From the IMG/VR virus record IMGVR_UViG_3300029319_000010, positions 1 to 64,000 of that record: 64,000 nt of DNA. One strand, written 5' to 3'. Below the pieces are notes generated by a model. It ran no database searches and was not told where the DNA came from. It was given only the letters and a program-made list of their open reading frames with translations. Made by a program: the position numbers and the translations under genes. This document shows, piece after piece, positions 8,254 through 60,944 of the stretch. The stretch's first letter is position 1. Each line of letters opens with the position of its first letter. The stretch comes from a virus.

Positions 8254-8312
8254 AATACTAAGATACTAAAATTTTATAAGTTTTTCTTTTTTTCATTTTA
8301 CACTTTTTAAGT

Positions 8313-17700: not shown

Positions 17701-20700
17701 TGCAATCTCATTTAGATACTTAAATACATTTTCTTTAGTGTCATTTAATTTATTTTCATAATGATCATATAAATCATTTACTACCTTATCTTTTAAATCA
17801 ATATAATTTTGCTCAAAGTTTTTTAAATATTGTAATTCTTCTTCTGTAAGTTCTTGTCTATTAAATTGCCAATCATCTGGTTTATCTCCATAGTACTCAC
17901 TATTCTCTTTATGAAATCTAGAGTTCTTTTTAAGTATATCATTTATTTTTTTATGAGTTTCTTCTGTAAAAAAATTATTAAACTGTTTATTTATTTTTTC
18001 TTGTTGTTCTCTACTTGCATCTTTATATCCAGGTATATCCATTTCAAATGTCTCACGGAGTTTGTAGTTATCTGGATCATATTTACTTGAAAAATATCTA
18101 TGATTTTTACTAGCAAATAAACCCTCAAAACGGTCATCTCCAATCAAATCTATAGGTTTTTTATCTCTTACACTTCCATAATACTCTACATCTCTTGGAA
18201 ATAAAGGTTTACCTCCTATATTTTGTAATATACGTTTGCTTCTACCTGTAAAAGGAACTGTTATCCCTGAGATCTGGTCAAAATTACCTTCTTCATTATA
18301 GTAGCCATCTTCCCCATACCATGTTGCACCTGTTTCTAAATCATCTAAGGTAAACTTATCACTCAAAAAATCTTTTACATTTTTATTTTCAAATCTTTCC
18401 CTTCTTTTATATGTTCTTCTTTTATCCCCCTCTCTATCTAAATGTTCAGGTACTTGATATTTACTATCTATTTGTTTTAATATATTTTGACTTTCTAATA
18501 ATTGATTTCTAGGAGATATCTCATCACCAGAAAAGAAATCACTTTTATCAAAATCAGTGCCTTCTCCTTGAGGAAATTCTAAATTTACATAACCTTGATT
18601 TGCCCAAGGAGTATAATCTTCTAAAATTCCTGTTGGATTTAATATACCTAAATCATCTAAATATGTAGCTCCTTCATTTTGTACTCCTACTAAACGTAGT
18701 GGATCTTTTTCATAACTTATAAACCCTCCTGCACCTGTACCTGGATGAGCTAAAAAGTCTGGGTTATCTAAATTCTTTATAAGTTTTTTATAATTTTTTT
18801 CTGTAAAAGGTCCTTCATTAGGATCCCATATATTAAAATCTTTTAATGCTTTTTCAAACATAACTTTACCAGCTCCTATTTCTCCTATGTCTGATATATG
18901 AGGTAATTGTTCTTCAATAAAATTTTGATCATATTTACCTTGTTGATCAAATATATTTTTATAAAAATCTATTTCATTAGTTGGTGTTGTATATCCTTCT
19001 ACACCTCTCCATAATGGAGAGTGTGGACTATTATATAAATGACTTACCTCATGCTCTTTTATTATATCTGCATATGGATGTATTCCATCTTCACCATAGA
19101 GATATGAAAAAGATTCTGGCCCACCAGGAGCATAAAATCTTGCTAAAGCTTCAAACTCTCTTGGCCCTAATAAAGCTAAATCCTTAAAATCATATTCTCC
19201 AGTATCCTCATTTAATTCATATTCTACATGACCGCGGCTTTGATTTATTATATTTTTTAATAAATCAGGGTTCATCCTTGACAGATTATTTATACCTTCT
19301 TCTGTATAAAAATCATATGCATTTTCATCATTTACTGGTAAGTCATAATTAATAGGAGTTGCTATATCTGGAACTTGGCTTGTATATTCAATTTGTTCTG
19401 CAATTCTTCTATTCCATTCGTCTTCAGTCATATCATTCCCAGTAACATTTTTATATTGTTTAAAATATCTATCTTTAAATGCAGGAGAATTATATTTTTC
19501 AATTAAATTTTCTTTTTGTTTTGATATATCATAAAAATCATAATCAGGATAATATGTTTGTGTACGTTTAGGTTCAATTAATTCAACTTCCTCTAAATCT
19601 GTTACTTCACCTTGATCTTGATATGTTGGTAGTTCTTGAATAGAACCTCCATCTACCTTTTTCAAATATTTACTTAACCCTTTACTACCATAGTAAGCAC
19701 CTTTTAAAAGTTTAGGGATACCACCCATAAAACCTAAAGGAGCAGTTCCTCCCATAGGTGTAATATCACCATAATCTACACCTAGCATTAAATCACCATC
19801 TTCATTTCTTACATAACCTGCAATTCTTTCTGATTCAGATTTTTGTTCATCAGTAAGTTCCATGTTTGCACTAAATGCAGAAAAGTCTTCTTCATCTATC
19901 TCACCATCTGAATCTAATTCTTCACCAGTTTCAGCTATTGGTAATAGTTTTATTTTATGGGGATCATCAGGAACATTAGCTGGAGCTTTATACTTTTTAA
20001 GTTGTTCCATTTCCTCATCAACCTTTTTATTTGATCTACTGCCTATTTCACTTATAGGTGCACCTAAAATATTTGTTTCTATTATAGGTCTAATGTCTGG
20101 ACCAGCATGTGCACCTTCTTCCATTGTACCATGTGTATGATATAAAGCATCTTGATCACCTCCTGCTTCTATATAGTCCTTAGCATAATCTTTTAAATAG
20201 GCAGCTCTACCTCTTTCATTATGTTGAAATGTATGAGTGGCTTCATTTATAAAATCTAATAATAATTGATAATCACTACGCACTAAAGGTTCACCAGTTT
20301 CAGGATGTGTATTTTTAAGCATTATTGTAGGACGCTGTCCTAATGACCAATTATCAAAATAGTCTCTAGTACCCTCATATATATGTACTGCAGGACTATT
20401 TAATCTTGTATATTCATTTATAAAATTTTGTTTTATTTCATCAGTGAGTCTTCTATCATCTGAATTCATAATTCTATCTATAAATTGTTGTGTTTGCTCA
20501 TCATGTTTAGCTTCTCCTTTCTTTTCATTAAGATATCTTTCTCCCCGCCATATAAACATTTCTGAATCAGCATGATTTTTTTGAGCATTAGAAAATGCCT
20601 CATTTAAATTACCTCCCTCTACAGTTGGATACATTTTAGGAATTCCAAATTTATTAAAGTCACCTGAATAATTATAAGGATTTGTCCAAGCTGGCATAGC

Positions 20701-21282
20701 TGTATCCCAACTAGAATATACAGCATCAGCCGTGCCCTTTAAAAAATCTATAATACTAGTTTCGGTTCCATCCTGTGCTTCTTCTAATTCTTGTTGATCC
20801 TTTGTGCTATAAAATTTTTCATCTTGTTTATCATTAACCGGGTTAGTTCTTTTTCTTTCTAGTTGATAATCTCTAGCTGCTTGTACAATTTCTATTGGGT
20901 ATGCTTGAGGACTTGATAGTACTATCTGTAAAGCTTCTTGTACATCCATACCTTGTGATTCTGCAAACTTTTCAAATGGATGATTATCATATGCAGTATC
21001 CATAGTACCTCCTACTTGTGCTAATGGTATTTCTATAACTATATCTCCAGGAAATTGATAATTAAGATCAGGCATCATAATCTCACTATTACCAAAATTA
21101 TCTGTGCCCATAACAGGAAATGGAACGCCCTCCATAGTAATATTACTTGACTCAATAATATTAAAGTCATTATTAAAATCAGGACTACCTTCTTTATATC
21201 CTTCTACAGATATAGAGCCTTTTGAAGTTACCTCATTAGGTCCTCCTGGTAAACCACGTCTGTTATTAAATTTTATATTCAT
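14707..21282 (-). CDS. Multidomain cargo protein (2191 aa) with zincin-like HExxH motifs and a C-terminal SLT-type lytic transglycosylase
   Basis: SLT motifs AESALDPNAISPAGAKGLTQIMP and LAAYNWG (~15190-15580); HEIGH (16438-16452); HEVSH (19039-19053); degenerate NEATHTFQH (20233-20247). Confidence 0.8.
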   Translation of the reverse strand: MNIKFNNRRGLPGGPNEVTSKGSISVEGYKEGSPDFNNDFNIIESSNITMEGVPFPVMGTDNFGNSEIMMPDLNYQFPGDIVIEIPLAQVGGTMDTAYDNHPFEKFAESQGMDVQEALQIVLSSPQAYPIEIVQAARDYQLERKRTNPVNDKQDEKFYSTKDQQELEEAQDGTETSIIDFLKGTADAVYSSWDTAMPAWTNPYNYSGDFNKFGIPKMYPTVEGGNLNEAFSNAQKNHADSEMFIWRGERYLNEKKGEAKHDEQTQQFIDRIMNSDDRRLTDEIKQNFINEYTRLNSPAVHIYEGTRDYFDNWSLGQRPTIMLKNTHPETGEPLVRSDYQLLLDFINEATHTFQHNERGRAAYLKDYAKDYIEAGGDQDALYHTHGTMEEGAHAGPDIRPIIETNILGAPISEIGSRSNKKVDEEMEQLKKYKAPANVPDDPHKIKLLPIAETGEELDSDGEIDEEDFSAFSANMELTDEQKSESERIAGYVRNEDGDLMLGVDYGDITPMGGTAPLGFMGGIPKLLKGAYYGSKGLSKYLKKVDGGSIQELPTYQDQGEVTDLEEVELIEPKRTQTYYPDYDFYDISKQKENLIEKYNSPAFKDRYFKQYKNVTGNDMTEDEWNRRIAEQIEYTSQVPDIATPINYDLPVNDENAYDFYTEEGINNLSRMNPDLLKNIINQSRGHVEYELNEDTGEYDFKDLALLGPREFEALARFYAPGGPESFSYLYGEDGIHPYADIIKEHEVSHLYNSPHSPLWRGVEGYTTPTNEIDFYKNIFDQQGKYDQNFIEEQLPHISDIGEIGAGKVMFEKALKDFNIWDPNEGPFTEKNYKKLIKNLDNPDFLAHPGTGAGGFISYEKDPLRLVGVQNEGATYLDDLGILNPTGILEDYTPWANQGYVNLEFPQGEGTDFDKSDFFSGDEISPRNQLLESQNILKQIDSKYQVPEHLDREGDKRRTYKRRERFENKNVKDFLSDKFTLDDLETGATWYGEDGYYNEEGNFDQISGITVPFTGRSKRILQNIGGKPLFPRDVEYYGSVRDKKPIDLIGDDRFEGLFASKNHRYFSSKYDPDNYKLRETFEMDIPGYKDASREQQEKINKQFNNFFTEETHKKINDILKKNSRFHKENSEYYGDKPDDWQFNRQELTEEELQYLKNFEQNYIDLKDKVVNDLYDHYENKLNDTKENVFKYLNEIAMDEGDGNVTYAKYGAELPSYQDKGQFNSQGQFIEDDGVVKVGKKEFPITYYNEEGVPMISTDYGSRDHRYLYNQLYELDPVELIDKDPVLEYADYLRDKTGKDTDFMGIEWERSNYNTPYLRRQELTNPVFNAVVDPLYGSIEGLQATTKAIDYGIQAIPVLTTAGVAGPSIIQATGALLNTPIPYTGTTVGGGINIAGGLYGGYSLPGDVKDFVEDPSLRTGVNVGLDLLGITFGGLEVAHMANKFKYSPLLKNTNPTPSTSPGVLKGGPSGKEFTAEEVMLMRENMEQGYNYSQLANSRVTDLQQRMLTPEFRLRMRGLIDEEIIGPGKLFTKRPVTEAGKVNQYERLVNGVIDDMIVDASQMRVVNMTDDYGSFGFNAPFRSNNPGAIQAGLPRVYLHKNLPYHSTANIPVTDHEIGHFIGAGITKYLPYNIGKIHPKHFDNPSIRQSLTTKLKKDLSDIYPEYTGKFSVYNTDIDRAIQKGLKTNYNYKAGPASNMDRTLYNTDINDLSSRQIDYVLRNLGKVGGNEKQYNYFARMLEPNPKNLSSTRISSTNPIGTSGEGMPYLAELRGDMLQRGFIKNTYDEITPSILTKYLNAIDVPTPGAPNITSVTGNPPYMPRIPQFMSKDPSNINFLSQQLNRLPAIIPPAIASPFILDQQSGGPRYDDGGESYGPITLQDTFKDGDDDGLPVGIDRDDSTEVGKDILLLQAMAESALDPNAISPAGAKGLTQIMPDTLTDYINATGDKDVDLTDYRDAMAVQKWYMNDLYNRPWINKGNQDQNVRLAKTLAAYNWGSTKLNNFLNEKKNAGVDIYSDDMSWVNDLPKETRDYVNMLVLRNDDKFEDKVKTLEGKKSVQKYINAYRRKGGSVRKYSRLFKDYKKNLEGEKISPTVLKELYKLGLANKPNKKLNLKGIRFNFEYNLDDVNYKKGGQLNLNLNQQIKFYEDYIKGSFDNGPKQNRANQIFKKLNKMYHLQTKKTGGNVLSYLQSLARI

Positions 21283-24200
21283 TATCTAAAACTATAATTT
21301 ACTTTTGTATTTGCTAATTTTAACACCATCTTTCTATTTTTTGAAACTGTTCTTCTTAATAGTATTTTATTATAATAATGTCTAAACTTCTTTCTTTGCA
21401 ATTGATTTTTATTATAATTTAAGTTTGCTTCATTTAAGTCTCTTATATACCCATTTAGCTGTGTAATAAATATTGACTCTGTAGCATCACTAAATTCACC
21501 TCTATCATAAGTAATATCCCAGAACTGATTAAATCTAAATTTCTGCTCCTCTTTACTATATAATATTCTTATATCATTTGCTGTTACTATTGGATAATCT
21601 GTAATTAAAGGTACATCATTTTTAGGATTAAGATCTAATGTTAATAATCCAGATACTTGTTCTGAGTTATGAATAATTGCCTCATCAAAGTTAAAATCAA
21701 GATCATGAAATCTATCTCCACAGTTATTATCTAAATTACCTTTATATATCCAACTCTCTAACTGATACTCTATACTCTTAACCGTATTAACTTGTTGACC
21801 AATTGCTTCAACCCATTCTATTTCCCAAGGATAGTCTTCATCATAATAATTTGTATATAAATCACAACGTACATTATGCTTCCAGGTACCTCCCCTTAAA
21901 TAACTTGGAGGAACTTGACAGACACCATCAAACAAACATGTTTTAGGAAATGGTTCCATATCCCCATTAAGGTAATCTTGATAATATCCTGGATCTCCTA
22001 AAAGATAAAAATCAGGACAATCTCCTTGTTCAGTTATAACAGTTTCTGGTGAAACATTAGAATCATCACAAAAACAATCTACTCTTCTACATATAAAACT
22101 ACCTGGGTTACATTGTCCAACAGGTGATGCAAAGTATCCTGATTCATCTTGAAATACAATTTCAAAACCTGGTTCATTATCACAATCACATATATTATCA
22201 CCATCAACTCTATATGTACAATCTAAACTAGCTACAACATCAATTGCAGGTTGAGCAAAAGTACCAGGATAAACTTGATAAGCACTTCTTGGATTAGCAG
22301 CAACTGCTCCTTGATAATCATCCATTATCCAAGCTTCATCCCACCACCACTGATCTACATCATAATAAATTTGTTGAAACTTATAAATAGACCAAACATA
22401 TTCGTCTGTTGCTTCTTGTCCTGCCTTAACAGCAATAACACCAATATTCATATGAGTTTGACCTAAAGCTGCAAAACAATCCGCAAGAGGATCTTCACCT
22501 GGTAAAAGACCTTGTGTAACTCCTACATGATTAGCAAATTCTATATTAGGATAGGTTGGAGTAACACAACCAGCAGGTGCAAAACTACTTGCCGCTTCAT
22601 GTAAGCCCAGCTCTCCAGTTCTCCATAACATAGCATTTAATGTAGGACCTGTACCAACACCATCATCAGCTAAACAGTTCTGTTCAAATTCACTATTATC
22701 ATCAACATCAGCACCAGCACCAGCATCTGTAATTATTACAGCTATTCTTTTTAAATTTGGATTATCAAATCTACTACCTGAGTGTGATAAACCCTGTGCA
22801 TTTACAACTGAAGCATCAGGATATTCAAATGGATCATCTGCATATACTCTTGCAGAATTTACAGCACCAGCATATGTTGTTGAACTATTACCAAGATCTG
22901 CTTGATCTAACTCTCCCAAGCCAGTATAGCCAGGAGCAATACCTATAAAATTTCTTATAGAAGAATAACTATTTGTAAAACGTAAATTTTTTCTATTAGA
23001 ACTTGTAATATCTAAATCACGGTTCACTGATGCAAGACCAGCCCATTGTACAATTGCTATTTGAACAGCACCACTAGTTATTTCAGCTTCTAGCTCTTCT
23101 ACAAATCTATCCATAAATAGCAACTCAGCTTTCCATGCAGCATCACCACTATATCCTGTACTACCTGATGCATCTACAGCAAGCACAATATCATAAGGAC
23201 ATGCTGCTGTTTCAGAAGATACATTGTCATCAAAGTTACCTTGTCTTTCTTCTACTTGTATTGTTGCTGGAAATTCTCCTGCAAGAAATTGTTCACATTG
23301 ACCTGTTGTAGGATTAAAATTAAAACCTGGAGGACATAATGGATCTTCTGTTATTTTAGATTTTGTAGTTAAGAAATGATTTAAACTTGGTAAAACTAAT
23401 TCTGGATGCCAATCATGGAATGATATCCAAGCCTTAGCTTTTGGGTCATAACTGACTGTCCATGATACATCTTCAAAATATTTTGTGTCATCTAAAGCAA
23501 CTGGTGTTGTTTGATCTATCAATCCAAGTGGCGCAGCCATTTCAAGACATTCACATGTCCAATTATTATTTGCATCTTGTATAGGTTCACATTCAGGTGG
23601 GCACTCAATTATCTCTGTAGTAGTTGTAACACCTTCAAATAATTGTATTGCCATATTATTAGCAACTTCCATATTATATCCTCCAATACCCCACTGATTT
23701 GGACCAGGACCAGATCTTGCTGCTGTATAATCTATATTTCCTTGAGTAGGTTCTACAACTGCAGGATAATCTGAAAGTAGTTCTGGAAATGTTCCATCAG
23801 GGTTTAACATGCTAGGATGAAGAATTTTTGGTTCAAAGTGAAAAGCCCACACTTGTAGTTGACCATTAAAAGCAAGTGCATCTTCATTTTGATAATTTGA
23901 TGTAGGATCAAATATATTATTATTCAACCAAGTTATAAAACTATCATTTTGTTCTAAATCATTATAAGAAGATGTTATTTGAGCTACCTCTGCATATGGC
24001 AAATAACCTATTAAAGGACCATCTGGAATATTATCAATATTAATACCCCATTCATTTTCTTGATAGAAAGATAAATCTCCTGGTTGTCCAGGATTTATTG
24101 ATAATGTATTTACCATTGGTGTAGTAGTAGGTGTTGCTGTACTTGTACCACTATCATATCCGTATCCATCCCCCAAGTGACTTGGTAGTGCAGTTGTATC

Positions 24201-27200
24201 ATACCTATCATCAATTTGTACATGAACTTTATTTACATCTGTTCTACCATTGGTATATAAATAATCTAAAGCTTCCCAAAATGCTCTAGTATTATTAGCA
24301 CCACCTGATATACCTACATCATATTCTTGATAAGCAATTTCATCCTCTTCACTCATAGGTATTTGATATTCCTCTAATCCTGTTTGATTACCTGGGAAAA
24401 GTACATTATTTGCCCACCATATTAATTGTCCAAAATCATCTGTAAAAGGTTGTATGTATCTACCTGCAGTATCCCAAGTTCTAATAGCTATTTGAACATC
24501 TCCATCAGCTAATTGTTCTCCAAAAGAATTTATAATATTTAATAAAAGAGCTTGAAGTATCTCTATATTGTCTTCTATATCTGCTCCACGTGTTACTTGA
24601 ACACTAAGTATTATATCAAACTTTGGTTTTGCAATAGTTGTTGATTCTGTTATATCAGGATCAACATAATAAACTCTTTCACATTTACCATTTCCTACAT
24701 ATGTAAATCCTTCTGGACAACATTCAATTTGAGGTAGTCCATCACATTTTGTTTGGTTATAAACAAAACCATCACAAGCATTAAACTCAATACAATCAGA
24801 AGTACAAGAAAAATCTTTTTTCATAAAATATACTAGATCATAATTAGGATCATATACTGATTGACAGCCTACACCTGCAACTGGATTATCAGACCATTTA
24901 GGACAAGTTTCTAATTCTGGAAATTGTTTAATTAACTGTGATGGTAAGTATTGATTAAACCATTGTTTCATACCTAGATTAGATATGTTATTTAATCCTT
25001 TACCTGCCATATGAAATATCTTACCCTGTGCTTGTGATATATAAAACATACCAGCTGGTGTATTAATAACACTTCTAGCACTTTCACAAGATCCATATTC
25101 ATGCGGTAAGTCTGCATTTACAAGATTTTGCATAGGTTGACTAAATAGTCCTCCATCACCAATAGTAAGCTTAGTACCAAGATCTGTTCTTAATGTATCT
25201 ACACCTTGAAATAAAGCTGGTGCTAAATGTGGGAATAAAATTACTGCACCGCTTTTAGATATAGGTTTAATGACATTTACTTGATTTTTAAAATCTTTAT
25301 AATTGTTTGGCAGGAATACTCTCCAAAAATCTTTTTTGGCTTCATTCTGAGCTTGTAATGAATATGCTAACCTTTTAGGGTAGTGTGTATTACATGTTTC
25401 TGCAACAAATGGATCATAGTCTCTTGGTTGTAATCTGCCTGAATTAATTCTAGTAGTTGGAAAGTTAGCATATGTAAGAGAATTGTCATACTTATAGAAA
25501 TTTCCTATTGAAAGAATTTCTGCATGAAATAAATCATTTATATCAGCATACTCTAACCAATCATAATGTCTTTTACCTTTTTGATCTTCATAATCTCTTT
25601 GAGCCACATTAATTTCTGACTCAACCCAAAAATCTTGAATTCCATTTACATGTGTATAAAAATATCTATCCTTTATATGGAAAAAACTTTTACCTCTTTT
25701 ATCATGTGTCTCATCTACAGTATCTGGACCAGAATTTATAGGTTGAACTGAACCATATGGATTAGTTGCTTGTAATGGTTCAAGTGAAATAGAACCCCCG
25801 TCAGCACCATCTCCACCTCCTTCATATCCTATTACATTACCGTCATCATCAAGTATTTCTTCCATATCTCCTCCGCTAGCATCGCTTCCATCAAAACTCC
25901 AATTCATAGTAACTAAACCAGGATCACCGTCTGGATATTGAATTCCTGTCATACCTTCACTTTTATCTACACCACCAATAGTAAAAGCTTCACACTGTAC
26001 ACTACCATCATCTAAATGAAAAAAACCATTAGGCATAGCACCATATAGAGAAGCTGGAGTATCTAACCATGCAAAGTTAGTTATATATCTAGCAAGGTTA
26101 GAAAGATCATATCTAATGAAATTTGCCCAATACATAGGAAACATTACATTTGCTCTAAGCCTGTAATCATAAGGAAAGCCATCAGGTTGACCTAATAAGA
26201 AGTCCCAGTAAAAAGGCATTATATTTTTTTCTGTATATCTATTTATATAACAATCACCTCCATATAGAGTGTCAGATTTTAATCTTGTATCAATATTAGC
26301 TATTAAAGTAATATCATCACCAGAATAACCTCCTTCAATTGATGGTAACTGATTCTTAACATATTGTATACCACTTCCAAACTCTCCATTAGTTATAGGC
26401 ACTTGTTTAACTTGATCAAGTTGACCATATTGATTTTCAAATTGTACTTTTAAACCAACATATTGTGCAGCAATATTTCTTGTAAAAGGTCTAGTAGGAT
26501 AAGTTGTATTACCTTCTTGACCTATAGTCCTTCTTGAATTGTCAGCACCATCAGCTCCTGGAGCTATATAACCTAACATCTTTGCCTGATCTCCTTCTAT
26601 TGGAAGGCTGCCATCAAGAAGCCCTTCATATCCTTCTCCTACTAATGCTACTGTATTTGGTCTAAACAAATTATTCATTTTAATAGTAGACGTCAAGTTT
26701 TGCATTGTATTTTTTACATATCTTGCTTTTCTACATCTTGTCCTCATAGGGGTATTTACACCTCCCTTATCTCCATCACCATCTAAATATTGCAACTCAG
26801 TTCTCCAATAAAGACCATGGCCATTATATTTCATAGCATAGTCTTGAAAACTACATAACTCATATATTAAGTTAATAATATGATTACCACCCTCTGCAGT
26901 CATATTTATAAACGCAAACACACCATACAAAGGTTGTAGTACAGCAGGAAGATCACCAAACCATGCTTCACCTCTATCATAATTAACTTGAACACCTCCA
27001 TCTTGATAACCACCTACCATACCTTGAGTAGTTAATGCAAAACCAGCAGTATTACCAGCCTGTGCTAGTTGTTGACCTATACCAGGAGCACCAAAAACAG
27101 TGGATGCAGTTGAAACAGTTTCTGTTCCAGCTGCTACACCTTGCTGTCCATATAAAGCTAATAAGTTACCACCAGAAATACCTGCACCAAGAAGTGGTGG

Positions 27201-29480
27201 ATTTACTGTTACCATAGGTTGTGGATAATCAACGGTTACTTGCCTTTTACCTCTTGTTCTTCCTATAGCATATCCTACACCTATAATAATTGCTATAAAT
27301 GCAGAAATATTTGTTAGTAGTTTTTGTTGTGGATGTTTCTCAGACACTTTAAATCTTCCTATACTTTGTCCAGTAGTAATACCATAACTTTTAATTTCAT
27401 AAGGACTTAAAAAAGGTTGATTAATAGATGTATCTGGAGAATGAAAAGTAAACATGTTTTTATATACAAATCTCCACTGTCTAGAAGCCGAATCAGGTAT
27501 AGTACCCAAACCTTGATATGGATTTGCATTATTTCTACTAGGGTATGCAAATTCAGGTATATCATCATCTGGTACATCACCTGGATCATGCAAGAATGCA
27601 TCACAACCTAAATCATTAAAAGGATAGTTTGCCATAACACCTATAGTGTCATTTGCTATACTTTCAGTAGAATCATTACCAACAGCATCTGGTGGTAATC
27701 TATATCCTTTCATATTTCTAGCTAATCCTTTTGCTATAATAGACTTATTGCCTTTTCTTGATCCAACTAATATTTCATAACCAACTATACCTGGCACTAA
27801 TGCACCTTCTCCTTGTGGATCTTCGCATACACCTACCGTTTCAGGATTTAATCTAGGTAATGCTATATTTTTAAACTTAACACCAAGAACTTGTATAGTT
27901 TGATTAAAATTAGTAGCCCTATGTATTGAACCAGTTAATGTAGATTGTTCATCTGGCATTTTATGATGTCTTATTGGTTTACCACATAAATCACCCCACC
28001 TCACTGGATCCATTGGATATCTTTCTGTTGATTCCCAGTATGCCATGTATCCCTCTTCAAAAATAATACCACCATCATTAGTTCTATAATTTGGCAAACT
28101 AAAAGGACCATCTACAGCATAACGTGCTGTATTATAAGATTGAAAAACCTTCTCTTCTCCAACATCTAAATTATTATTATCTCCGGCTGGAGTTAAATCT
28201 GTTACGGCTCCCATTGGTGGAGCATAAAATTCAGGGCCTCTACCAGGTATATGATATGAACTAGATTTTTCACCGGTATTATATATCCATCTAATAAAAA
28301 ATGCATACACTTCATCTCTCATAAATGTAGGCTTATTCCCTCCTTTTTTATAATAGTCAGCAGGAAATTTAGTTGACATCCATGTTGTTTCTATTTGATT
28401 TGCTAAAGGTTGATAATTAAAATCAAATCTTTCATATGGTCCTGATCTAATAAGATAGTCATTAACAACATACATCTTATCAGACTTTTCATAAACAGGA
28501 TTTCTTAAAGGTAAAAGTTCTATTGGAACTGATTTTAATGATCTATCAATATAATCTATCCCTATATGAGTTGTCTCCACACTATAAAAACCTATGTGTT
28601 TAGCAACAACCTCATTTTGATTATTACTTAATATAACAAGTTTAAACTCTTCAAATAAACCACCTCTATCTAAATTTCTTAGTTTAATATCTAATGAACC
28701 AGAAACATCTTCATGATCCCACAATGATTGTACATTAGAGACGCCTATATAATCACCTATTTGTTGTTCATTGATTGTATATGCTATAAATGCCTGATAT
28801 GATCCATTTCTTAACTGACCACCATTATCTGAACTAGATAAAATAACTTCAGGTGTATCCATTAAGGGAGCTAATCTTAGTAAATCACAATCTATTTGTA
28901 AAGGTTCTATTGGAACATATTGTATACAATCAGTATTTTCTATATCAACTACTTTCTCTGTCTTCCAAGGTATATTACTAATGTTCATTGTTCTAGATGG
29001 ATTTCTTCCATCATCCCAATATACTTGCCAAGTACAATCAAAATTTTCTTTTGATGCACCAGTAATTAAACAAAGTCTATTAAAATTTAAACAATTTTCA
29101 GGTGGACATTGTGTACTTGCACCATCATTAACTAAAGTTTCATAGGTACATTGACTATCATCAAAAATTCCTATTTCACTATTTATATCATCTGTTGAAT
29201 AAATAACCCACTTATCTCCATATAAATGTATTGTACCTATTACTGTATAAGTAATCTCTACACAGAATAAATTAGCTGGCTCATTACCTATTGCACCTAC
29301 ATCACCTTTGCTAGAATTATTTATAGCATTACGTGCATGTGTCCAATTATTTTTATCAGTTAAAGCAGCATTAGGGTCTTTACTCATACCCTTCAGAAAC
29401 ACATCTGTGTCTGTCTGCATAGTATTTTGCATACTAGCTTTACGCTGCCTTCTACTTTGATTTCTTCTTTTTTTAGCCAT
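21282..29480 (-). CDS. Tail stabilisation/muzzle protein (P22 gp10-like, crAss-type) with vWA and EGF-like inserts (2732 aa)
   Basis: Follows the ring genes; conserved-looking blocks FMRDEVYAFFIRW, FHSPD, GGDCYINRY, WTVSYDPKAKAWISFHDW; MIDAS motif DASGS near 23160-23175. Confidence 0.75.
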   Translation of the reverse strand: MAKKRRNQSRRQRKASMQNTMQTDTDVFLKGMSKDPNAALTDKNNWTHARNAINNSSKGDVGAIGNEPANLFCVEITYTVIGTIHLYGDKWVIYSTDDINSEIGIFDDSQCTYETLVNDGASTQCPPENCLNFNRLCLITGASKENFDCTWQVYWDDGRNPSRTMNISNIPWKTEKVVDIENTDCIQYVPIEPLQIDCDLLRLAPLMDTPEVILSSSDNGGQLRNGSYQAFIAYTINEQQIGDYIGVSNVQSLWDHEDVSGSLDIKLRNLDRGGLFEEFKLVILSNNQNEVVAKHIGFYSVETTHIGIDYIDRSLKSVPIELLPLRNPVYEKSDKMYVVNDYLIRSGPYERFDFNYQPLANQIETTWMSTKFPADYYKKGGNKPTFMRDEVYAFFIRWIYNTGEKSSSYHIPGRGPEFYAPPMGAVTDLTPAGDNNNLDVGEEKVFQSYNTARYAVDGPFSLPNYRTNDGGIIFEEGYMAYWESTERYPMDPVRWGDLCGKPIRHHKMPDEQSTLTGSIHRATNFNQTIQVLGVKFKNIALPRLNPETVGVCEDPQGEGALVPGIVGYEILVGSRKGNKSIIAKGLARNMKGYRLPPDAVGNDSTESIANDTIGVMANYPFNDLGCDAFLHDPGDVPDDDIPEFAYPSRNNANPYQGLGTIPDSASRQWRFVYKNMFTFHSPDTSINQPFLSPYEIKSYGITTGQSIGRFKVSEKHPQQKLLTNISAFIAIIIGVGYAIGRTRGKRQVTVDYPQPMVTVNPPLLGAGISGGNLLALYGQQGVAAGTETVSTASTVFGAPGIGQQLAQAGNTAGFALTTQGMVGGYQDGGVQVNYDRGEAWFGDLPAVLQPLYGVFAFINMTAEGGNHIINLIYELCSFQDYAMKYNGHGLYWRTELQYLDGDGDKGGVNTPMRTRCRKARYVKNTMQNLTSTIKMNNLFRPNTVALVGEGYEGLLDGSLPIEGDQAKMLGYIAPGADGADNSRRTIGQEGNTTYPTRPFTRNIAAQYVGLKVQFENQYGQLDQVKQVPITNGEFGSGIQYVKNQLPSIEGGYSGDDITLIANIDTRLKSDTLYGGDCYINRYTEKNIMPFYWDFLLGQPDGFPYDYRLRANVMFPMYWANFIRYDLSNLARYITNFAWLDTPASLYGAMPNGFFHLDDGSVQCEAFTIGGVDKSEGMTGIQYPDGDPGLVTMNWSFDGSDASGGDMEEILDDDGNVIGYEGGGDGADGGSISLEPLQATNPYGSVQPINSGPDTVDETHDKRGKSFFHIKDRYFYTHVNGIQDFWVESEINVAQRDYEDQKGKRHYDWLEYADINDLFHAEILSIGNFYKYDNSLTYANFPTTRINSGRLQPRDYDPFVAETCNTHYPKRLAYSLQAQNEAKKDFWRVFLPNNYKDFKNQVNVIKPISKSGAVILFPHLAPALFQGVDTLRTDLGTKLTIGDGGLFSQPMQNLVNADLPHEYGSCESARSVINTPAGMFYISQAQGKIFHMAGKGLNNISNLGMKQWFNQYLPSQLIKQFPELETCPKWSDNPVAGVGCQSVYDPNYDLVYFMKKDFSCTSDCIEFNACDGFVYNQTKCDGLPQIECCPEGFTYVGNGKCERVYYVDPDITESTTIAKPKFDIILSVQVTRGADIEDNIEILQALLLNIINSFGEQLADGDVQIAIRTWDTAGRYIQPFTDDFGQLIWWANNVLFPGNQTGLEEYQIPMSEEDEIAYQEYDVGISGGANNTRAFWEALDYLYTNGRTDVNKVHVQIDDRYDTTALPSHLGDGYGYDSGTSTATPTTTPMVNTLSINPGQPGDLSFYQENEWGINIDNIPDGPLIGYLPYAEVAQITSSYNDLEQNDSFITWLNNNIFDPTSNYQNEDALAFNGQLQVWAFHFEPKILHPSMLNPDGTFPELLSDYPAVVEPTQGNIDYTAARSGPGPNQWGIGGYNMEVANNMAIQLFEGVTTTTEIIECPPECEPIQDANNNWTCECLEMAAPLGLIDQTTPVALDDTKYFEDVSWTVSYDPKAKAWISFHDWHPELVLPSLNHFLTTKSKITEDPLCPPGFNFNPTTGQCEQFLAGEFPATIQVEERQGNFDDNVSSETAACPYDIVLAVDASGSTGYSGDAAWKAELLFMDRFVEELEAEITSGAVQIAIVQWAGLASVNRDLDITSSNRKNLRFTNSYSSIRNFIGIAPGYTGLGELDQADLGNSSTTYAGAVNSARVYADDPFEYPDASVVNAQGLSHSGSRFDNPNLKRIAVIITDAGAGADVDDNSEFEQNCLADDGVGTGPTLNAMLWRTGELGLHEAASSFAPAGCVTPTYPNIEFANHVGVTQGLLPGEDPLADCFAALGQTHMNIGVIAVKAGQEATDEYVWSIYKFQQIYYDVDQWWWDEAWIMDDYQGAVAANPRSAYQVYPGTFAQPAIDVVASLDCTYRVDGDNICDCDNEPGFEIVFQDESGYFASPVGQCNPGSFICRRVDCFCDDSNVSPETVITEQGDCPDFYLLGDPGYYQDYLNGDMEPFPKTCLFDGVCQVPPSYLRGGTWKHNVRCDLYTNYYDEDYPWEIEWVEAIGQQVNTVKSIEYQLESWIYKGNLDNNCGDRFHDLDFNFDEAIIHNSEQVSGLLTLDLNPKNDVPLITDYPIVTANDIRILYSKEEQKFRFNQFWDITYDRGEFSDATESIFITQLNGYIRDLNEANLNYNKNQLQRKKFRHYYNKILLRRTVSKNRKMVLKLANTKVNYSFR

Positions 29481-49014: not shown

Positions 49015-49113
49015 TTATTTCTTAATTGTATACTTGATTGACACATCAGTGTAAGAAGAATTAGTTGTCCAAGATATATTAACCATTGTAGGTGTACTGT
49101 TCCAGTATTTCAT
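49015..49113 (-). CDS. Putative 32-aa micro-ORF (MKYWNSTPTMVNISWTTNSSYTDVSIKYTIKK)
   Basis: Manual translation; ATG overlaps the TerL stop (TAATG) and the ORF fills the TerL-portal gap. Confidence 0.45.
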   Translation of the reverse strand: MKYWNSTPTMVNISWTTNSSYTDVSIKYTIKK

Positions 49114-51305
49114 TATTTTATATTTTTAAATGCTGATTTCTTAAATTTTTTACCTCCTAATCTGCGTTTGTTACGCCCTAAATTTCTAAAAGGACTACTA
49201 GATAATTTATACAAATTTTTAGACTTTTCCAAGCTATCTGCTGACTTATCCTTTTCTCTGTGCTTTAAATAACCTCTATTAGACTGTTGTATTTTTGCAA
49301 ATGCTATCAATGCAGAAAAAGCTACAAGTCTATCCACGTTAAGACCAGGGTAATACTGTCTCATTTCTATTAGTAACATTTTGTCTGGTATTCTTGATAC
49401 TCCTAACGTTTGTCCTATAACATTTCCATTAACATCTAGATCTTCATCAATAACCTCTCTTATATACTCTATAGCATAAGATATTAAATGACTTTTAAAT
49501 AATGTTCCAGTATTTTTCCAACCATATTCTTGAAATACATTCTTATTTGATCCTAGATCTTTTAAAAATAAAATTTGTTGTTTTGGTACTAGATATTTTT
49601 GTTTCTTTCTAGCTATCATATGTTGAATAAACAATGATATATTATTCTCAACTATAGTCCATGCCTTATACCATTCTATTATAAGCTCTAGTTGTTCATG
49701 TGTTTTATTTATATCATCATATCTACCACACCAAGATGCTACTATCTTATCTTTTTCTATAAATGTTTCAGGTCCATCCGGTGTATTTCTTGTAACCTCA
49801 ACAGCATTCTTATAAACAAATATACTACATAAAGAATCTGATGTTGTTGTTTTACCTTCTGATACAGGGTCAATAGATGCATAATACATCATAAACTTTG
49901 GATTCTTTACAGGTCTTTCCCATACAACTATAGATCCGGTTTTATCTTCTAATTTTTTCTTAACAGGAAATGTAGTTATAGGTAATTTGTTTGTCTTGCT
50001 AGCTTTTATACCATCTTGATCACGTTCTAACTTTATAAACTCATATGCATATTTTTTTTCTTCTATACTTCTTATTTGTTTTTCTAGTATGCTTTGTGGA
50101 AATACAGCTTCTTTTCTATAAGCAAATGCTTCTGCAATATTTATTGGTTTTTGTGATATACGCAATTGATACTGTTCTGGTGCTAAATCTTTTTTCCATT
50201 CATTTCTTTCTTCAACAATAGCTGTAAGAGCTTCTTGTATCATAGAATTGCCGTATTTATCAATAAAGGGCGGCATAGACCATTGTTCTGGTATAAAAAG
50301 ACCTGCAATACCAATACCTCCCTTTTCATCCATTAGATCTGTTTCTACAGCAAATATATCATTTGCCTGTGGATTAAGTATCATTTCTTTTAATGGGTTG
50401 CATTGATCAAGATCACCCACTGATCCTGCAGCAATAAACATACCTGTAGTCATCATACCTGAAGACATTGCTGGTCTAATGTACTCATATGTTTGATCCA
50501 TCTTTGGTGCAATACCAGCCTCTTCATGAAAAAAATAAGTACAAGGTCCACCTACACCTGTTGTAGCATTCTTTTCAAAAGATGCTCCTTGTATTTTAGA
50601 CATAAGTCCTTTATTTGTTTTTCTATTATTTATTCTAACTTCTATCTTTTGCTCCCATAATAATACTTTCTCAGGTGTACATGGTCTATACCATGCAGTA
50701 TGTTCATTAAGAAATGTCTTATATTCATCTAAAAACTTCCAAGAACCTTTATCATTAATATAATCTTTTAGTGATGCTCCCATCTTACATATAGATCCTT
50801 CTTCAAACCAAAATTGATTTATAAGTTTAGCCATATGAAAATATGATGATGCTATCTGTCTTTTCTTTAGAATAGCTGCATGTTTATAATTAAGTTCTGC
50901 TAGAAGCTCATATATAGCCATATGATATTGTGCATCTCTTACTTTAGCAAAGCCATACTTCTTTTCCTCTTTATCAAATATTGGTAAAAAGTTTAACCAC
51001 ATATAGTAGTCTCTTGTTAGATACCATGTTTCCTTTTTTCCTACGTAAATTACACCATCTCTACACTTTTTCTTTTGATCATTCCAATAATTTATAAAAT
51101 CTTTAGATCTAAATGGTTTATCACAATAATATCCTTGCTCATTAAAAATCTTAGCCTCTTTATTAAAGAGATATGCAGTTTTATCAAAATTATATTGACC
51201 TGGCTCTTTAAATAAAACTACTACAAACTTTTTAAACTCATCTTGTGTCTTAAAATCTGTAGTAGTCCACTTATTATCTTTATATGTAGGTATAGATTTA
51301 TACAT
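49113..51305 (-). CDS. terL: Terminase large subunit (730 aa)
   Basis: Walker A-like LKKRQIASS, Walker B FFHEEAG, nuclease motifs YASIDPV, IVENN, NVDRLVA. Confidence 0.9.
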   Translation of the reverse strand: MYKSIPTYKDNKWTTTDFKTQDEFKKFVVVLFKEPGQYNFDKTAYLFNKEAKIFNEQGYYCDKPFRSKDFINYWNDQKKKCRDGVIYVGKKETWYLTRDYYMWLNFLPIFDKEEKKYGFAKVRDAQYHMAIYELLAELNYKHAAILKKRQIASSYFHMAKLINQFWFEEGSICKMGASLKDYINDKGSWKFLDEYKTFLNEHTAWYRPCTPEKVLLWEQKIEVRINNRKTNKGLMSKIQGASFEKNATTGVGGPCTYFFHEEAGIAPKMDQTYEYIRPAMSSGMMTTGMFIAAGSVGDLDQCNPLKEMILNPQANDIFAVETDLMDEKGGIGIAGLFIPEQWSMPPFIDKYGNSMIQEALTAIVEERNEWKKDLAPEQYQLRISQKPINIAEAFAYRKEAVFPQSILEKQIRSIEEKKYAYEFIKLERDQDGIKASKTNKLPITTFPVKKKLEDKTGSIVVWERPVKNPKFMMYYASIDPVSEGKTTTSDSLCSIFVYKNAVEVTRNTPDGPETFIEKDKIVASWCGRYDDINKTHEQLELIIEWYKAWTIVENNISLFIQHMIARKKQKYLVPKQQILFLKDLGSNKNVFQEYGWKNTGTLFKSHLISYAIEYIREVIDEDLDVNGNVIGQTLGVSRIPDKMLLIEMRQYYPGLNVDRLVAFSALIAFAKIQQSNRGYLKHREKDKSADSLEKSKNLYKLSSSPFRNLGRNKRRLGGKKFKKSAFKNIK

Positions 51306-57513: not shown

Positions 57514-58221
57514 TTACATCATGTTTCTTCTAAACATTCTGTCTCTTTTTCTATCCATACGTCTATCACGTCTTGCTTGCTGTCTCTCTGTTCTAGCATC
57601 TATTCTACCCATCTTTCTAGCTTGTCTGTCCATACGTCTATCCATTCTTCTTTCTTGTCTGTTCTCTCTTCTGTCCGCTCTACGTGCTTGTCTTTCCTCT
57701 CTTCTATCAGCTCTTCTAGCTTGTCTCATCTCTCTCATTAGGTCACGACCTTCTTTTCTAGCCGCTCTACGCATAAATCTGTTTCCTATTCTAGTTAAAG
57801 CTGGATCTGGTCCTCCCATTCCAGGTGCCATATAGTTAAATCCCATAGTTCCTGGTCCTGACATTCCCATCATATTAAATCCTGGTCTTGCATAAGCTGT
57901 TTGCATAGGGTTTACAACAGGCATTATATTTGATCCTGTACCCATGCCTGCTTCAACGGCAGAGCTTAAATCTCCAGTAGTATTATAATTAGCTATTCCT
58001 TCATCAACCATATCTGGATTTAGACCTGCATCTATTAATTCTTCTCTAATTTCTCCCGTATCTTGATACGAAGTCAATTTCTTTCTAGTTCCGCCTCCAT
58101 ACCCCATTCTTCTACGAGCTGTCCCACCAGATTTAAGATAACCCATTTTCTTTCTAACACTAGGGTCTAATGCTCTTAATCCGTTATATTTTTTACCTTT
58201 TGGTATTGCTTTAAGTGCCAT
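57514..58221 (-). CDS. Protein with Arg-rich repeat C-terminus (235 aa), first gene of the late module
   Basis: RRADRRE/RRMDR repeats; GYLKSGG, MGYGGG, YQDTGE motifs. Confidence 0.75.
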   Translation of the reverse strand: MALKAIPKGKKYNGLRALDPSVRKKMGYLKSGGTARRRMGYGGGTRKKLTSYQDTGEIREELIDAGLNPDMVDEGIANYNTTGDLSSAVEAGMGTGSNIMPVVNPMQTAYARPGFNMMGMSGPGTMGFNYMAPGMGGPDPALTRIGNRFMRRAARKEGRDLMREMRQARRADRREERQARRADRRENRQERRMDRRMDRQARKMGRIDARTERQQARRDRRMDRKRDRMFRRNMM

Positions 58222-58284
58222 AATTTTTATTTTAAAATTAGTATTTCATTTTTAAGTTACCCTTCTGTAAAGGATCCCCTCACT

Positions 58285-58300
58285 ATTTAATATACAAAAA
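58285..58300 (-). promoter_or_regulatory. Putative late promoter motif TT(T/A)GTATATTA (representative copy)
   Basis: Similar motif in intergenic gaps at ~14671, 32870, 37218, 39210 and 40795, with variants at ~8258, 31582 and 46168, always on the minus strand. Confidence 0.6.
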
Positions 58301-58446
58301 CTCCCCCGGTAATGCAAAAATAATGTGTTTAAGGTTCTAATGGGGTTTATGTTTTTGGCTCCCCCAATAAAGTCCGGCAGTGTACTACCCCCAGGTTGTA
58401 TACTGGCAATATATATAAATCTTAAATAAATTTAAAATTAATAGCT

Positions 58447-58782
58447 ATGGCGACAATAAAAATTAAGAACCACGGTTCTCAAATATTAGTAACTGACTCT
58501 GATGTAGTCAGAGATGTGCAAGGTAATGAAAAGTGTAATGAAGAGTTTCCTTTTCTAAAAGATGTACCAATGTTAAACATTGATCCAACCGGCAAAGTTG
58601 GCATCCTTCCATTAAAGAAAGGATCCAAAATGGCTGAAGTATTTCTTGGCTTACCCAAAGGTACAAAAGTACCTGTTGAGTTAACCAAGAAAGAAATAGA
58701 AGGTGCAGATGGTAAAATCTACTACCGTGCAAGATTAATCTCTTCATACTTTACAGCAATAAAAGCAAAGGCAGATAAATAA
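58447..58782 (+). CDS. Hypothetical protein, first gene of the plus-strand early region (111 aa)
   Basis: ORF track; AT-rich leader; hairpin over the stop codon. Confidence 0.7.
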   Translation: MATIKIKNHGSQILVTDSDVVRDVQGNEKCNEEFPFLKDVPMLNIDPTGKVGILPLKKGSKMAEVFLGLPKGTKVPVELTKKEIEGADGKIYYRARLISSYFTAIKAKADK

Positions 58783-58798
58783 ATCTGCTTTTTGCTTT
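58762..58798 (+). terminator. Hairpin overlapping the stop codon (terminator or processing site)
   Basis: AAAGCAAAGGCAGAT-aaataa-ATCTGCTTTTTGCTTT. Confidence 0.5.
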
Positions 58799-58799
58799 A

Positions 58800-59490
58800 G
58801 CTTGTCTTATGGAAGCTACGGTAATATGGAACTTACTGTAGCTTTTTACCTGCTTATATAGCAATCCAGGTCCTGAACTTACGCAGAACAGTTGTACCTG
58901 CAACTATACAGCAACTTTTTTATCTTTTTGCTCCCAAAATAATTTTTGCACAGCAAAAAGTTGTGTGTGTTAGTGTGTAAAGATGAGGTATACAATACCA
59001 CATTTTACCACTTAACACCACATGGTCTAACGGAATGAACCGTATTAAATAATATAGCTATAACTACTACATCAGGCGTGCCAAACAGAAGAGTACAAGG
59101 TAGTACTCACGGATTGATAGTAGTAGTTGTAGTCTTATGTTCTCTCTCTATAGGATAAGAGACATAGTAACCGCAAGGTTATAAATTGGAATTAAATAAA
59201 TAGAGGTTTAGTTCTTCGGTAATATAAGTAAAGCACAGTAGGATGCTGTTGAGGAGTATTACTGCACCGGTCTACAAAGCTAGTAGATTGCCAGAGATCT
59301 TAGGTAGAAACACTACTTAGTCTATTAGAGATGTAGTTATAATATATGTGCACAATGTATTATAACTCTCTCTTCTTATAATCTAACAGAGTAAACTGTA
59401 TAAAAGAAACTAGGAGAAGTTAACTGCACATGGTTGCAAACATAGATGCAGAGGGTTAGGAGTAATTACCTAATCTTCTGTCTTCTCCAT
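58800..59490 (+). ncRNA. Candidate long structured non-coding RNA or structured leader
   Basis: No ORF >=60 aa; about ten stems, G-U pairs on the + strand, GCAA tetraloop at 59168-59181, long-range closing helices. Confidence 0.6.
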
Positions 59491-59493
59491 CAC

Positions 59494-59537
59494 ATAACGT
59501 CCACATACTACGTTCAAAGTATGAATTCACTTAAATT
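59494..59537 (+). repeat. 44-nt leader element, copy 1 (putative H-type pseudoknot)
   Basis: ATAACGTCCACATACTACGTTCAAAGTATGAATTCACTTAAATT; 38/44 identical to 59927-59970. Confidence 0.8.
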
Positions 59538-59550
59538 TAATTAACTAAGA

Positions 59551-59829
59551 ATGGAAACATATGAAATAAGAATCTATCCTCATGAATATATGGATAGAGC
59601 TAAACAAGATCACTTTGCTGCATTTAATATAGCAGATAAAATATCTAATGTAATAAAATTAATGTTAGATTCTGATACTGAAGTAAAATATATTGATGAA
59701 TCAACTAATGATAGTTATCAGTATTTAATACTTAATCCAAATAGTCTTGTTACAAAGGAACTAAGAAAGAAAATAGAATTAGTTTTTCCTAAAGTACATT
59801 TTGGAAATAGATGGAGAGAGGTAGCTTAA
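59551..59829 (+). CDS. Hypothetical early protein (92 aa)
   Basis: ORF track; preceded by leader copy 1. Confidence 0.7.
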   Translation: METYEIRIYPHEYMDRAKQDHFAAFNIADKISNVIKLMLDSDTEVKYIDESTNDSYQYLILNPNSLVTKELRKKIELVFPKVHFGNRWREVA

Positions 59830-59926
59830 TGTTACCTCTTTACTATTGGACCGTAACTCACCTATCTTTGGTTGGGCTTGATCACCTGTAATCATTGATC
59901 CAAATGACGTGAGTGAGGTCCTCATT

Positions 59927-59970
59927 ATAACGCTTGCATACTGCGTTTAAAGTATGAATTCACTTAAATT
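59927..59970 (+). repeat. 44-nt leader element, copy 2 (putative H-type pseudoknot)
   Basis: ATAACGCTTGCATACTGCGTTTAAAGTATGAATTCACTTAAATT. Confidence 0.8.
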
Positions 59971-59977
59971 AAATGAT

Positions 59978-60244
59978 ATGAACTTAGGAATAAAAATATT
60001 TAATAAAGCAATGTTTAAAAGATTTATGGGATTTGCTGACCAAGGTCAAGTATTTAAAAAGGACGCTCTTTATGTACTTAGAAATGAATGGAAATATTCA
60101 GATGGAAGTACAGGAAAATTCTTTGTTACAGGTAAAATGATTTATCAAGCACTAAATGACTCTACAAGTAATGACAGATTTAGTGATATAGATATTAATC
60201 ATAAAGATTTTATTAATCAAATGATTCTAAATCTTTGCGTGTAA
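59978..60244 (+). CDS. Hypothetical early protein (88 aa; alternative in-frame start 59954)
   Basis: ORF track; the 59954 ATG lies inside the repeated leader. Confidence 0.65.
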   Translation: MNLGIKIFNKAMFKRFMGFADQGQVFKKDALYVLRNEWKYSDGSTGKFFVTGKMIYQALNDSTSNDRFSDIDINHKDFINQMILNLCV

Positions 60245-60384
60245 AGTAACAACGTCACCACTGACGTACAAACAATACCAGTATTAAAAGTACTGTTATA
60301 GTAAACAGTTGTTATGATTGTTTATTTAAGTGGGTAGTGATTAAGGAGGGACATTATAGCTACTGTTCTTCCTTAATCCGTTTT

Positions 60385-60458
60385 GGTCTCATAGCTCAAT
60401 TGGATAGAGCAACAGCCTTCTAAGCTGTAGGTTCTAGGTTCAAGTCCTAGTGGGATCA
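60385..60458 (+). tRNA. tRNA-Arg (anticodon TCT), CCA not encoded
   Basis: Acceptor GGTCTCA/TGGGATC, D-arm GCTC..GAGC, anticodon arm ACAGC-CTTCTAA-GCTGT, T-arm CTAGG-TTCAAGT-CCTAG. Confidence 0.95.
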
Positions 60459-60485
60459 CGAAATAAATTGTATAACTTAATAATA

Positions 60486-60944
60486 ATGACTATGAATCTA
60501 AATAATATTTTAAAGAAACTAATAACAACAGAAGATAGAAAAAACTTACATGACTATGTTTTTAATATGCTATTACACAATACAGATACAGCAGTATTAG
60601 AGTATTGTATACATGTTATCTGTGAAGATAAAAAGCCAATGAGAATAGATATAGCTGATGATATATGGTTTGACCCTAAAGATAATATGTATGACCTTGA
60701 AGATGTACTTATGTATAAAGATAGATTAATTGATGCTAATCTTATGACTGAAGAAGGTCTACTAAAAGGCAAAATTATATCAGACACAAGTTATAAAGAA
60801 GAATGTAACCCTTATGCAGCAGAATATAAAGTAGAATTTGGTATGAAAAAGTTTAAAGATATTGATAATACCAACTTCTACAAAGAGATAAGGGTTAAAA
60901 GACAAAACATATGGGGAATAGTAGAACCAGAAGATTTGGTATAG
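60486..60944 (+). CDS. Hypothetical protein (~152 aa)
   Basis: ORF track start 60450 overlaps the tRNA; ATG at 60486 or 60492 more likely. Confidence 0.65.
   Translation: MTMNLNNILKKLITTEDRKNLHDYVFNMLLHNTDTAVLEYCIHVICEDKKPMRIDIADDIWFDPKDNMYDLEDVLMYKDRLIDANLMTEEGLLKGKIISDTSYKEECNPYAAEYKVEFGMKKFKDIDNTNFYKEIRVKRQNIWGIVEPEDLV

Follow-up and report, generated by a model that had tools for sequence, protein, structure and literature searches.

A predicted RNA family at the head of the early genes of uncultured marine crAss-like phages

The gene-free gap and its layout

The window analysed here, 64,000 nucleotides long, comprises bases 1-64000 of an IMG/VR virus record of 114,213 bases with a completeness estimate of 98%. 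Its portal, large terminase and major head protein matched crAss-type PHROGs. The terminase (TerL, 49113-51305) is only 23-26% (about 25%) identical to that of any deposited Crassvirales phage, which indicates that the record represents a deep-branching, uncultured marine lineage, and the DNA runs that contain the gap stretch are marine and estuarine metagenomes. Genes lie on the minus strand across 1-58221 and on the plus strand from 58447 on. Directly after the first plus-strand ORF (58447-58782), at the head of the rightward early genes, there is a gap of ~770 bases (58783-59550) that is followed by the plus-strand ORF 59551-59829; it is the largest ORF-free gap of the window, as the preliminary description of this DNA had stated. 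The small ORFs adjoining the gap have no matches in Pfam or PHROG, and a scan for sigma-70 promoters gave matches at chance level. For the giant ORFs (2191 and 2732 aa; 14707-29480) the PHROG matches are to endolysin-domain proteins and to a "virion structural protein". Neither of them, nor any other ORF >400 aa, has the DFDxD motif by which the virion RNA polymerase of phi14:2 is recognised, apart from a DYDND in an unrelated 1389-aa ORF, and no polymerase was assigned.

The plus strand of the whole gap folds at -221 kcal/mol (z -8.37 against shuffles) and the minus strand at -190 kcal/mol (z -3.71), so the expectation that the plus strand folds better than shuffles held. The z values of the separate segments (Table 1) indicate that RNA-like plus-strand structure starts at 59052 and ends near 59493. 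The gap is a composite of terminator-like hairpins, a lineage-specific spacer, a stretch that behaves as a DNA control region and plus-strand RNA structure, and not one 700-nt RNA. The preliminary description had proposed a single ncRNA of about that length with selection on the plus strand; its first ~70 nt are predicted terminators and 58963-59051 behaves as a DNA site, and the strand claim stands for 59052-59493, fails at the terminators and at 58963-59051, and is reversed at 58853-58962.

Table 1. Folding of the segments of the gap on both strands (z against shuffles) and coordinates of the features within it
Segment or feature	Position	Strand	z, plus	z, minus	Description
Segment	58765-58852		-4.97	-4.55	Two hairpins, each with a U run; predicted terminators of ORF 58447-58782
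Segment	58853-58962		-1.73	-3.10	Strand bias reversed, minus folds better
Segment	58963-59051		-3.39	-2.83	Symmetric
Segment	59052-59294		-3.76	-1.96	Plus-strand-specific; six hairpins
Segment	59295-59405		-3.18	-0.30	Plus-strand-specific
Segment	59406-59493		-3.90	-1.85	Plus-strand-specific
Segment	59494-59553		-0.64	-0.14	No signal
Terminator-like hairpin GCAGAU/AUCUGC	58771-58795	+			Overlaps the stop codon of ORF 58447-58782; then UUUUU
Second terminator-like hairpin	58813-58849	+			12-14 bp, one G-U, then UUUUUA
Spacer	58853-58962	not set			Close relatives only; minus fold preferred
Region A	58964-59051	not set			TGTG repeats, CCAC array, small hairpin, AT-rich run
Box1 ATATAGCTAT	59052-59061	+			Near-invariant; 5' arm of the stem closing hairpin V
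Hairpin V	59052-59140	+			Stem-closed hypervariable cassette, 89 nt, GAGTAC/GTACTC at the tip
C-box TCTCTCTCTATAGGATAA, then GAGACATAG and GTAACCGCAA	59141-59176	+			Universal conserved core
Optional module 2	59167-59379	+			Helices and invariant CUCUCUUCUUAU tail
ACAGAGTAAACTGT hairpin motif	59386-59399	+			Seen again in many relatives, close to where the non-coding part ends
Domain closed by GGAGAAG/CUUCUCC	59406-59493	+			This phage only; no relatives found
Leader of ORF 59551	59494-59550	+			Hairpin CATACT/AGTATG plus CACTTAAATT; repeated before ORF 59954

At the 5' end of the gap, both 58771-58795 and 58813-58849 combine a stable stem, a U run and a position 3' of a stop codon, and we read them as two predicted intrinsic terminators that end the first plus-strand gene. 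For the stem at 58771-58795 the program scan lists the minus strand only, and the plus-strand reading with its U run was taken from the sequence. The hairpin 58813-58849, which is identical in the close relatives L003-L005, contains the previously noticed helix 58813-24/58833-44 (12 bp, one G-U, then UUUUU). At the other end of the structured part, the helices 59413-19/59482-88 and 59449-60/59469-80 are present as described before, in this phage only. A 38-nt leader, in which the CATACT/AGTATG hairpin is followed by AATTCACTTAAATT, stands at 59504-59541, immediately 5' of ORF 59551, and again with 92% identity at 59937-59974, immediately 5' of ORF 59954; it likewise precedes first ORFs in relatives.

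Part of 58200-60500 is contained in 20 sequencing runs, three of which are metatranscriptomes. One contig (X18) spans 59054-59293 with 100% identity at a depth of 25.7, and a second (X19) spans 59093-59294, also with 100% identity, at a depth of 6.9; they come from two runs of one study (P13) and both stop at 59293/4. The third (X20), from another study, spans 58841-59016 and carries three changes typical of the L003-L005 lineage. The flanking genes are uncovered in all three. Strand, ends and level are not readable from these contigs, and DNA may occur in RNA libraries, so that they are support, not proof, of transcription. The position of X20 may mean either that RNA starts upstream of region A or that there is a leftward RNA. 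Together with the minus-strand folding preference of 58853-58962, X20 makes a leftward or antisense RNA from region A possible.

Relatives of the element and their common plan

A search with the flanking proteins led to four loci, in one of which (L005) blocks of the gap are 97-99% identical beside a neighbouring protein that is only 57% identical; the element is better conserved than its neighbours. Pattern scans of IMG/VR with the conserved boxes gave 17 and later about 35 true members, and a metagenome scan added at least 119 further stretches. At least 117 distinct loci were left after removal of duplicates, from marine and some freshwater metagenomes. Box1 was collected with the pattern A[TC]ATAGCTA. 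All 117 collected loci have box1, hairpin V and the C-box TCTCTCTCTATAGGATAA in common, and most also have GTAACCGCAA. Box1 and the C-box co-occur in at least 138 loci; since the two patterns are independent of each other and yet co-occur, their conservation is not a product of the search.

The loci share one order of parts. Region A, the small hairpin, the AT-rich run, box1 ATATAGCTAT and the insert V are followed by a TATAG-like 3' arm with TATGT, the C-box, GAGACATAG and GTAACCGCAA, then by 0-400 nt of optional sequence that often ends in ACAGAGTAAACTGT, and finally by CACTTAAATTAAAT..ATG, which is the leader of the ORF that follows. In the minimal loci (L008, L021) the core is joined directly to the ATG, with no terminator and no extra module from the core to the first ATG. 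Where long flanks are available, minus-strand genes lie further upstream and plus-strand ORFs downstream in 30 of 30 loci, and the nearest upstream gene is a plus-strand ORF in 29 of 30, encoding ~75-175 aa and ending ~75-360 nt before box1. A conserved upstream partner protein was not seen: among 90 upstream ORFs, just 6 are related. The core is present in a single copy in this genome.

No Rfam family matches the element, in line with the preliminary description. In a cmscan against Rfam 15, whose families include GOLLD, ROOL, HEARO, tmRNA and ribozymes, at the gathering threshold only the tRNA-Arg at 60385-60458 passed, leaving the gap without a match, and a permissive search of 58600-59700 (E up to 10) gave at best 12-21 bits with E of at least 0.1, far under the thresholds. 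Blastn against GenBank phages with the whole gap and with two conserved boxes returned chance matches only, and no account of this element was found in the literature. The collected loci point to an RNA family that is shared by more than 100 uncultured phages and is missing from the RNA databases.

Conserved and variable parts of the element

Region A (88 nt in the window, 100 nt in the common plan of the relatives) contains no indel in 111 distinct sequences and follows the consensus TGTGTGTTAA..TGTG...GGTC...CCACAnnnTACCACTTnnnACCACA; it is a single-copy sequence in the genome. In the window, CCAC recurs at 58998, 59008 and 59018, in an exact 10-nt phase. Base-pair covariation was found neither in region A nor in 58963-59022, and the highest mutual information falls on pairs of positions that do not base-pair; the strongest of these couple matching positions in the repeats, possibly as a lineage signal. 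The long bulged hairpin reported earlier at 58963-59022 does appear in the minimum free energy fold, but is not supported as an RNA helix: it lacks base-pair covariation, and the segment 58963-59051 folds equally on both strands. Considering the fixed spacing, the absence of covariation and the equal folding of the two strands, region A is likely a DNA site bound by a protein or polymerase, that is, a putative promoter/control region or origin. The small hairpin at 59030-59043 (59030-33/59040-43) is formed in ~60% of the members and lost in about a third; its variants are all Watson-Crick (ACGG/CCGU, AUGGU/ACCAU, ACUGU/ACAGU, GUGG/CCAC). One relative, L110 (CETN01022787.1), is without the TGTG/CCAC array and keeps everything 3' of it, from the small hairpin and the AT run through box1 and V to the C-box; in this locus a plus-strand gene ends immediately 5' of the small hairpin.

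Hairpin V ranges from 36 to 182 nt and falls into 69 clusters among the 117 collected loci, with no 10-mers in common. The same V stands beside regions A of <80% identity in 27 pairs of loci, and regions A of at least 97% identity stand beside unrelated V sequences in 18 pairs, which indicates that V has been exchanged between phages as a cassette. The minimum free energy fold closes V through box1 and the 3' arm in 80 of 103 distinct V sequences, and the helix 59057-70/59120-33 with GAGTAC/GTACTC, known from the first inspection of this phage, is present. At stem position 11 the pair is A-U in 38 sequences, C-G in 30 and U-A in 3, and the partner of G6 is U in 39 and C in 38. The variable arms pair better with the arm of their own locus (-8.4 kcal/mol) than with that of other loci (-5.9 kcal/mol), doing so in 75 of 103 cases (p 1e-9). 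In 20 of 24 clusters, folding of the V interior favours the plus strand; the bias does not exceed that of composition-matched shuffles (p 0.15), and we therefore do not use G-U pairs as a strand argument there. RNAalifold returned no structure for the alignment of the whole core, because V does not align. Contig starts in the metagenomes show no clear clustering inside V.

The V slot is not restricted to hairpins. In L147 (a TARA_B100001778 scaffold) it holds a 50-codon ORF whose ATG overlaps box1 (ATATAGCTATGAAG...), which suggests that the slot from box1 to the C-box can accommodate a small gene. In L009 a second stem-closed unit, AGCTATAA...TTATAGCT, lies ~150-220 nt past the C-box and is homologous to the V of L010, which suggests that V-type units are portable.

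The C-box can form a hairpin that pairs its CU-rich run with a purine-rich run. In one fixed register 72% of cells are paired against 39-56% in slid controls, with few compensatory types, and the registers seem shifted in different subfamilies. As far as the alignment goes, sequence conservation outweighs pairing as the signal of the C-box. We also considered the C-box as a T7-type promoter, since it resembles CTCACTATAGG, and rejected this: it is a single-copy sequence, and the RNA-library contigs traverse it from upstream. A search of the genome for a T7-like polymerase (PF00940) gave no match, and the control genomes gave none either.

Module 2, common to at least six distinct relatives, is made up of the GCAA hairpin (59168-81), the helices 59217-25/59256-64, 59235-40/59244-49 and 59272-77/59283-88, and the hairpin 59335-67 with the loop GUGCACA, after which the invariant CUCUCUUCUUAU tail follows. 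RNAalifold with six relatives gave 39 pairs and compensatory changes in 10. Once two further helices had been put in by hand, 93.5% of cells are paired, as compared to 29-52% with slid partners, and both sides have changed in 11 pairs. The covariation score of 0.25 (shuffles, 0.159 +/- 0.016) was reached by none of 500 shuffles, which answers the call of the preliminary description for covariation in gathered relatives. There are 38 G-U cells, and one U-G pair is constant in all six sequences; such conserved pairs are compatible with plus-strand RNA only. The G-U argument for selection on the plus strand is therefore upheld at 59167-59379 and lost for the interior of V. Every helix of the preliminary description occurs in the sequence or in its minimum free energy fold. 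Among the individual helices predicted from the window, the GCAA hairpin, 59217-25/59256-64, 59235-40/59244-49 and 59335-46/59356-67 recurred, the last three with compensatory changes in relatives; 59301-07/59313-19 forms in the window and is weak in relatives (59.5% of cells paired), and the closing helix 59199-204/59321-26 is absent from the consensus fold. Compensatory change, the general mark of structured RNA, is found in module 2, and the arm test given above supplies its counterpart for the V stem.

Interpretation and alternatives

With a probability of roughly 0.55, we read the RNA of the gap as non-coding and as belonging to the early operon, either as its leader or as a stable RNA. 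Three layers would then open the early transcription unit, which runs rightward in this uncultured marine crAss-like phage. In the uppermost, the two intrinsic terminators would end the first plus-strand gene; in the second, the single-copy DNA control region of fixed geometry (58964-59051) would direct initiation; and the third would be a plus-strand non-coding RNA running from box1 (59052), or a few bases before it, to ~59493. The universal RNA core would consist of box1, hairpin V, the C-box and GUAACCGCAA. By pairing with the 3' side of V, box1 would lock the 5' end into a long stem, presumably protecting the transcript, while the invariant C-box is most likely the candidate recognition site of a protein on the nascent or mature leader. 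Judging from its position only, such a protein might act in stability, processing or anti-termination. Beyond the core, independent hairpin modules would be gained, lost and exchanged among related phages. The direct junction of the core with the first ATG in the minimal relatives suggests that the universal function is exerted in cis on the early transcript and that the extra modules are add-ons.

This reading is favoured by the plus-strand-specific folding confined to 59052-~59493, the box1, V and C-box common to 117 loci, the minimal loci, the conservation of the element above that of its neighbours, the V stem kept through unrelated sequences, the compensatory changes of module 2, the synteny in 30 of 30 loci, the RNA-library contigs and the precedent of phage phi14:2. 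The earlier proposal of a structured plus-strand ncRNA, for which a scaffold, an anti-defence decoy or a processing platform had been put forward as candidate roles, likewise agrees with the covariation, the G-U pairs that are conserved, the RNA-library contigs and the place at the head of the early genes. On the other side of the balance are the caveats attached to X18-X20, the upstream cover of X20, the register of the C-box and the composition of the V interior.

The same RNA might instead act in trans. A stable ncRNA of ~240 nt (59052-59294), cut from the leader or terminated within it, with V as its specificity part, could serve as a decoy, sponge or anti-defence RNA against a host or phage factor. 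We consider this unlikely. It would fit the contigs, which span 59054-59293/4, from the foot of V to one base past the hairpin 59269-59292, as well as the swapping of a hypervariable V (69 clusters, 18 discordant pairs with nearly the same region A) and the persistence of the phi14:2 early ncRNAs late in infection. However, the ends of contigs differ from the ends of RNAs, and these come from two runs of one study; the minimal relatives have neither a terminator nor an extra module in front of the first ATG, and no Rfam family matches. The main rival, compatible with a real RNA, concerns the DNA beside it: region A could be the iteron array of a replication origin, with the CCAC units in 10-nt phase, inverted TGTG units and an adjoining AT-rich unwinding run, and the neighbouring RNA could activate or prime replication. 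Fixed spacing in 111 sequences without indels or base-pair covariation, equal folding of both strands, single copy number and a location at the switch of gene orientation and GC skew all suit an origin. GC skew tracks gene orientation anyway and is not decisive, L110 does without the array and retains the rest, and there is no linked initiator gene, given that the family of the upstream ORF is not conserved. Phased repeats and an AT run are at hand, and a conserved linked protein is not (6 of 90 upstream ORFs are related), and we hold an origin to be distinctly unlikely. Joining the two ideas, V might be a cassette that is swapped and sets the specificity of an early RNA, which would either prime or license replication at the adjacent repeat array or decoy a host defence. 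This is quite improbable; if true, swaps of V would allow escape from the interference of co-infecting relatives or from RNA-targeting immunity, like ColE1 incompatibility through the loops of RNA I/II.

It is very improbable that the stretch is without RNA function, its hairpins being palindromes in the DNA or the debris of a hot spot at which modules recombine. The mosaic of the region, with its cassette exchange, and a V interior with no strand bias beyond composition would be expected of such debris, but more than 100 phages with differing flanking genes have a nearly invariant box1 and C-box, and compensatory changes, conserved G-U pairs, plus-strand-specific folding and presence in RNA libraries speak for an RNA. 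A retron or DGR ncRNA was rejected, as a search of the 114-kb genome for a reverse transcriptase (PF00078) found none and did detect its controls.

Known elements resemble this one in part. The RNase III processing hairpins of T7 and the anti-termination RNAs lambda nut and HK022 put are structured cis RNAs past early promoters and ahead of early genes; their placement is alike, whereas neither sequence nor structure matches and they are not known to have a hypervariable cassette. GOLLD and ROOL are large phage-associated ncRNAs of unknown function near tRNA genes. A likeness to their ornate fold was not borne out: the gap RNA is a chain of independent, partly optional, exchangeable hairpin modules (~59052-59493) and not one conserved multi-domain fold, and cmscan gave no match to them at E up to 10. 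Iteron origins and ColE1 RNA II/RNA I combine helically phased repeats, an AT-rich run and RNA stem-loops that set specificity, and ColE1 RNA II and the T7 primary origin use structured RNA to activate or prime replication. Our element resembles them in its phased repeats, AT-rich run and structured RNA with variable stem-loops, but no initiator and no antisense RNA were identified, and its array is missing from L110.

The closest precedent is phi14:2, a Cellulophaga crAss-like phage, in which early intergenic ncRNAs lie at the g004-g005 and g005-g006 junctions (Drobysheva et al., bioRxiv 10.1101/2020.03.07.982082). They are rightward and very abundant, stand a few genes into the rightward early module, and stay abundant late in infection (bioRxiv 10.1101/2020.03.07.982082). 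Both phages are crAss-like, with a marine Bacteroidota host (an expected one for the present phage), and have a non-coding stretch at the same genomic position. Among the features of these ncRNAs, the position at the head of the early module and the plus-strand bias are seen here, and the contigs cover 59054-59294 without giving timing, strand or abundance. Homology was not supported. Bases 1-9000 of phi14:2 contain none of the family motifs apart from a single minus-strand TACCACTT at 5100, and nhmmer with a core profile of 102 sequences found no match in 2905-4601, so that a likeness noticed by eye (AAATAATATAG...; CUCUCU..AUAAGAGCAUAG) was left unconfirmed. The second ncRNA region of phi14:2 differs in being a tmRNA: in NC_021806 ARAGORN places one at 4031-4502 (g005-g006) with the tag peptide GSSVQKLAMVA, and Rfam RF00023 matches there with 46 bits (E 1.4e-16).

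Early ncRNAs of crAss-like phages are otherwise known from that single RNA-seq observation in phi14:2. The present family is recognisable by sequence: a core that all members share is combined with a hypervariable hairpin that phages exchange and with modules that are portable. It adjoins what looks like a master early control site or origin. Its members would constitute a new RNA family and could mark an uncultured clade, and they offer a target for asking how crAss-like phages start transcription or replication, how their early RNA is kept stable and whether RNA cassettes are traded between phages.

A tRNA gene accompanies the element. The tRNA-Arg(TCT) at 60385-60459 is the sole ARAGORN result in the window, with no other tRNA and no tmRNA, and a tRNA-Arg(TCT) on the strand of the element is found in 20 of 60 related loci, ~0.5-7 kb downstream wherever its position was checked, which makes it a recurrent companion of the early region.
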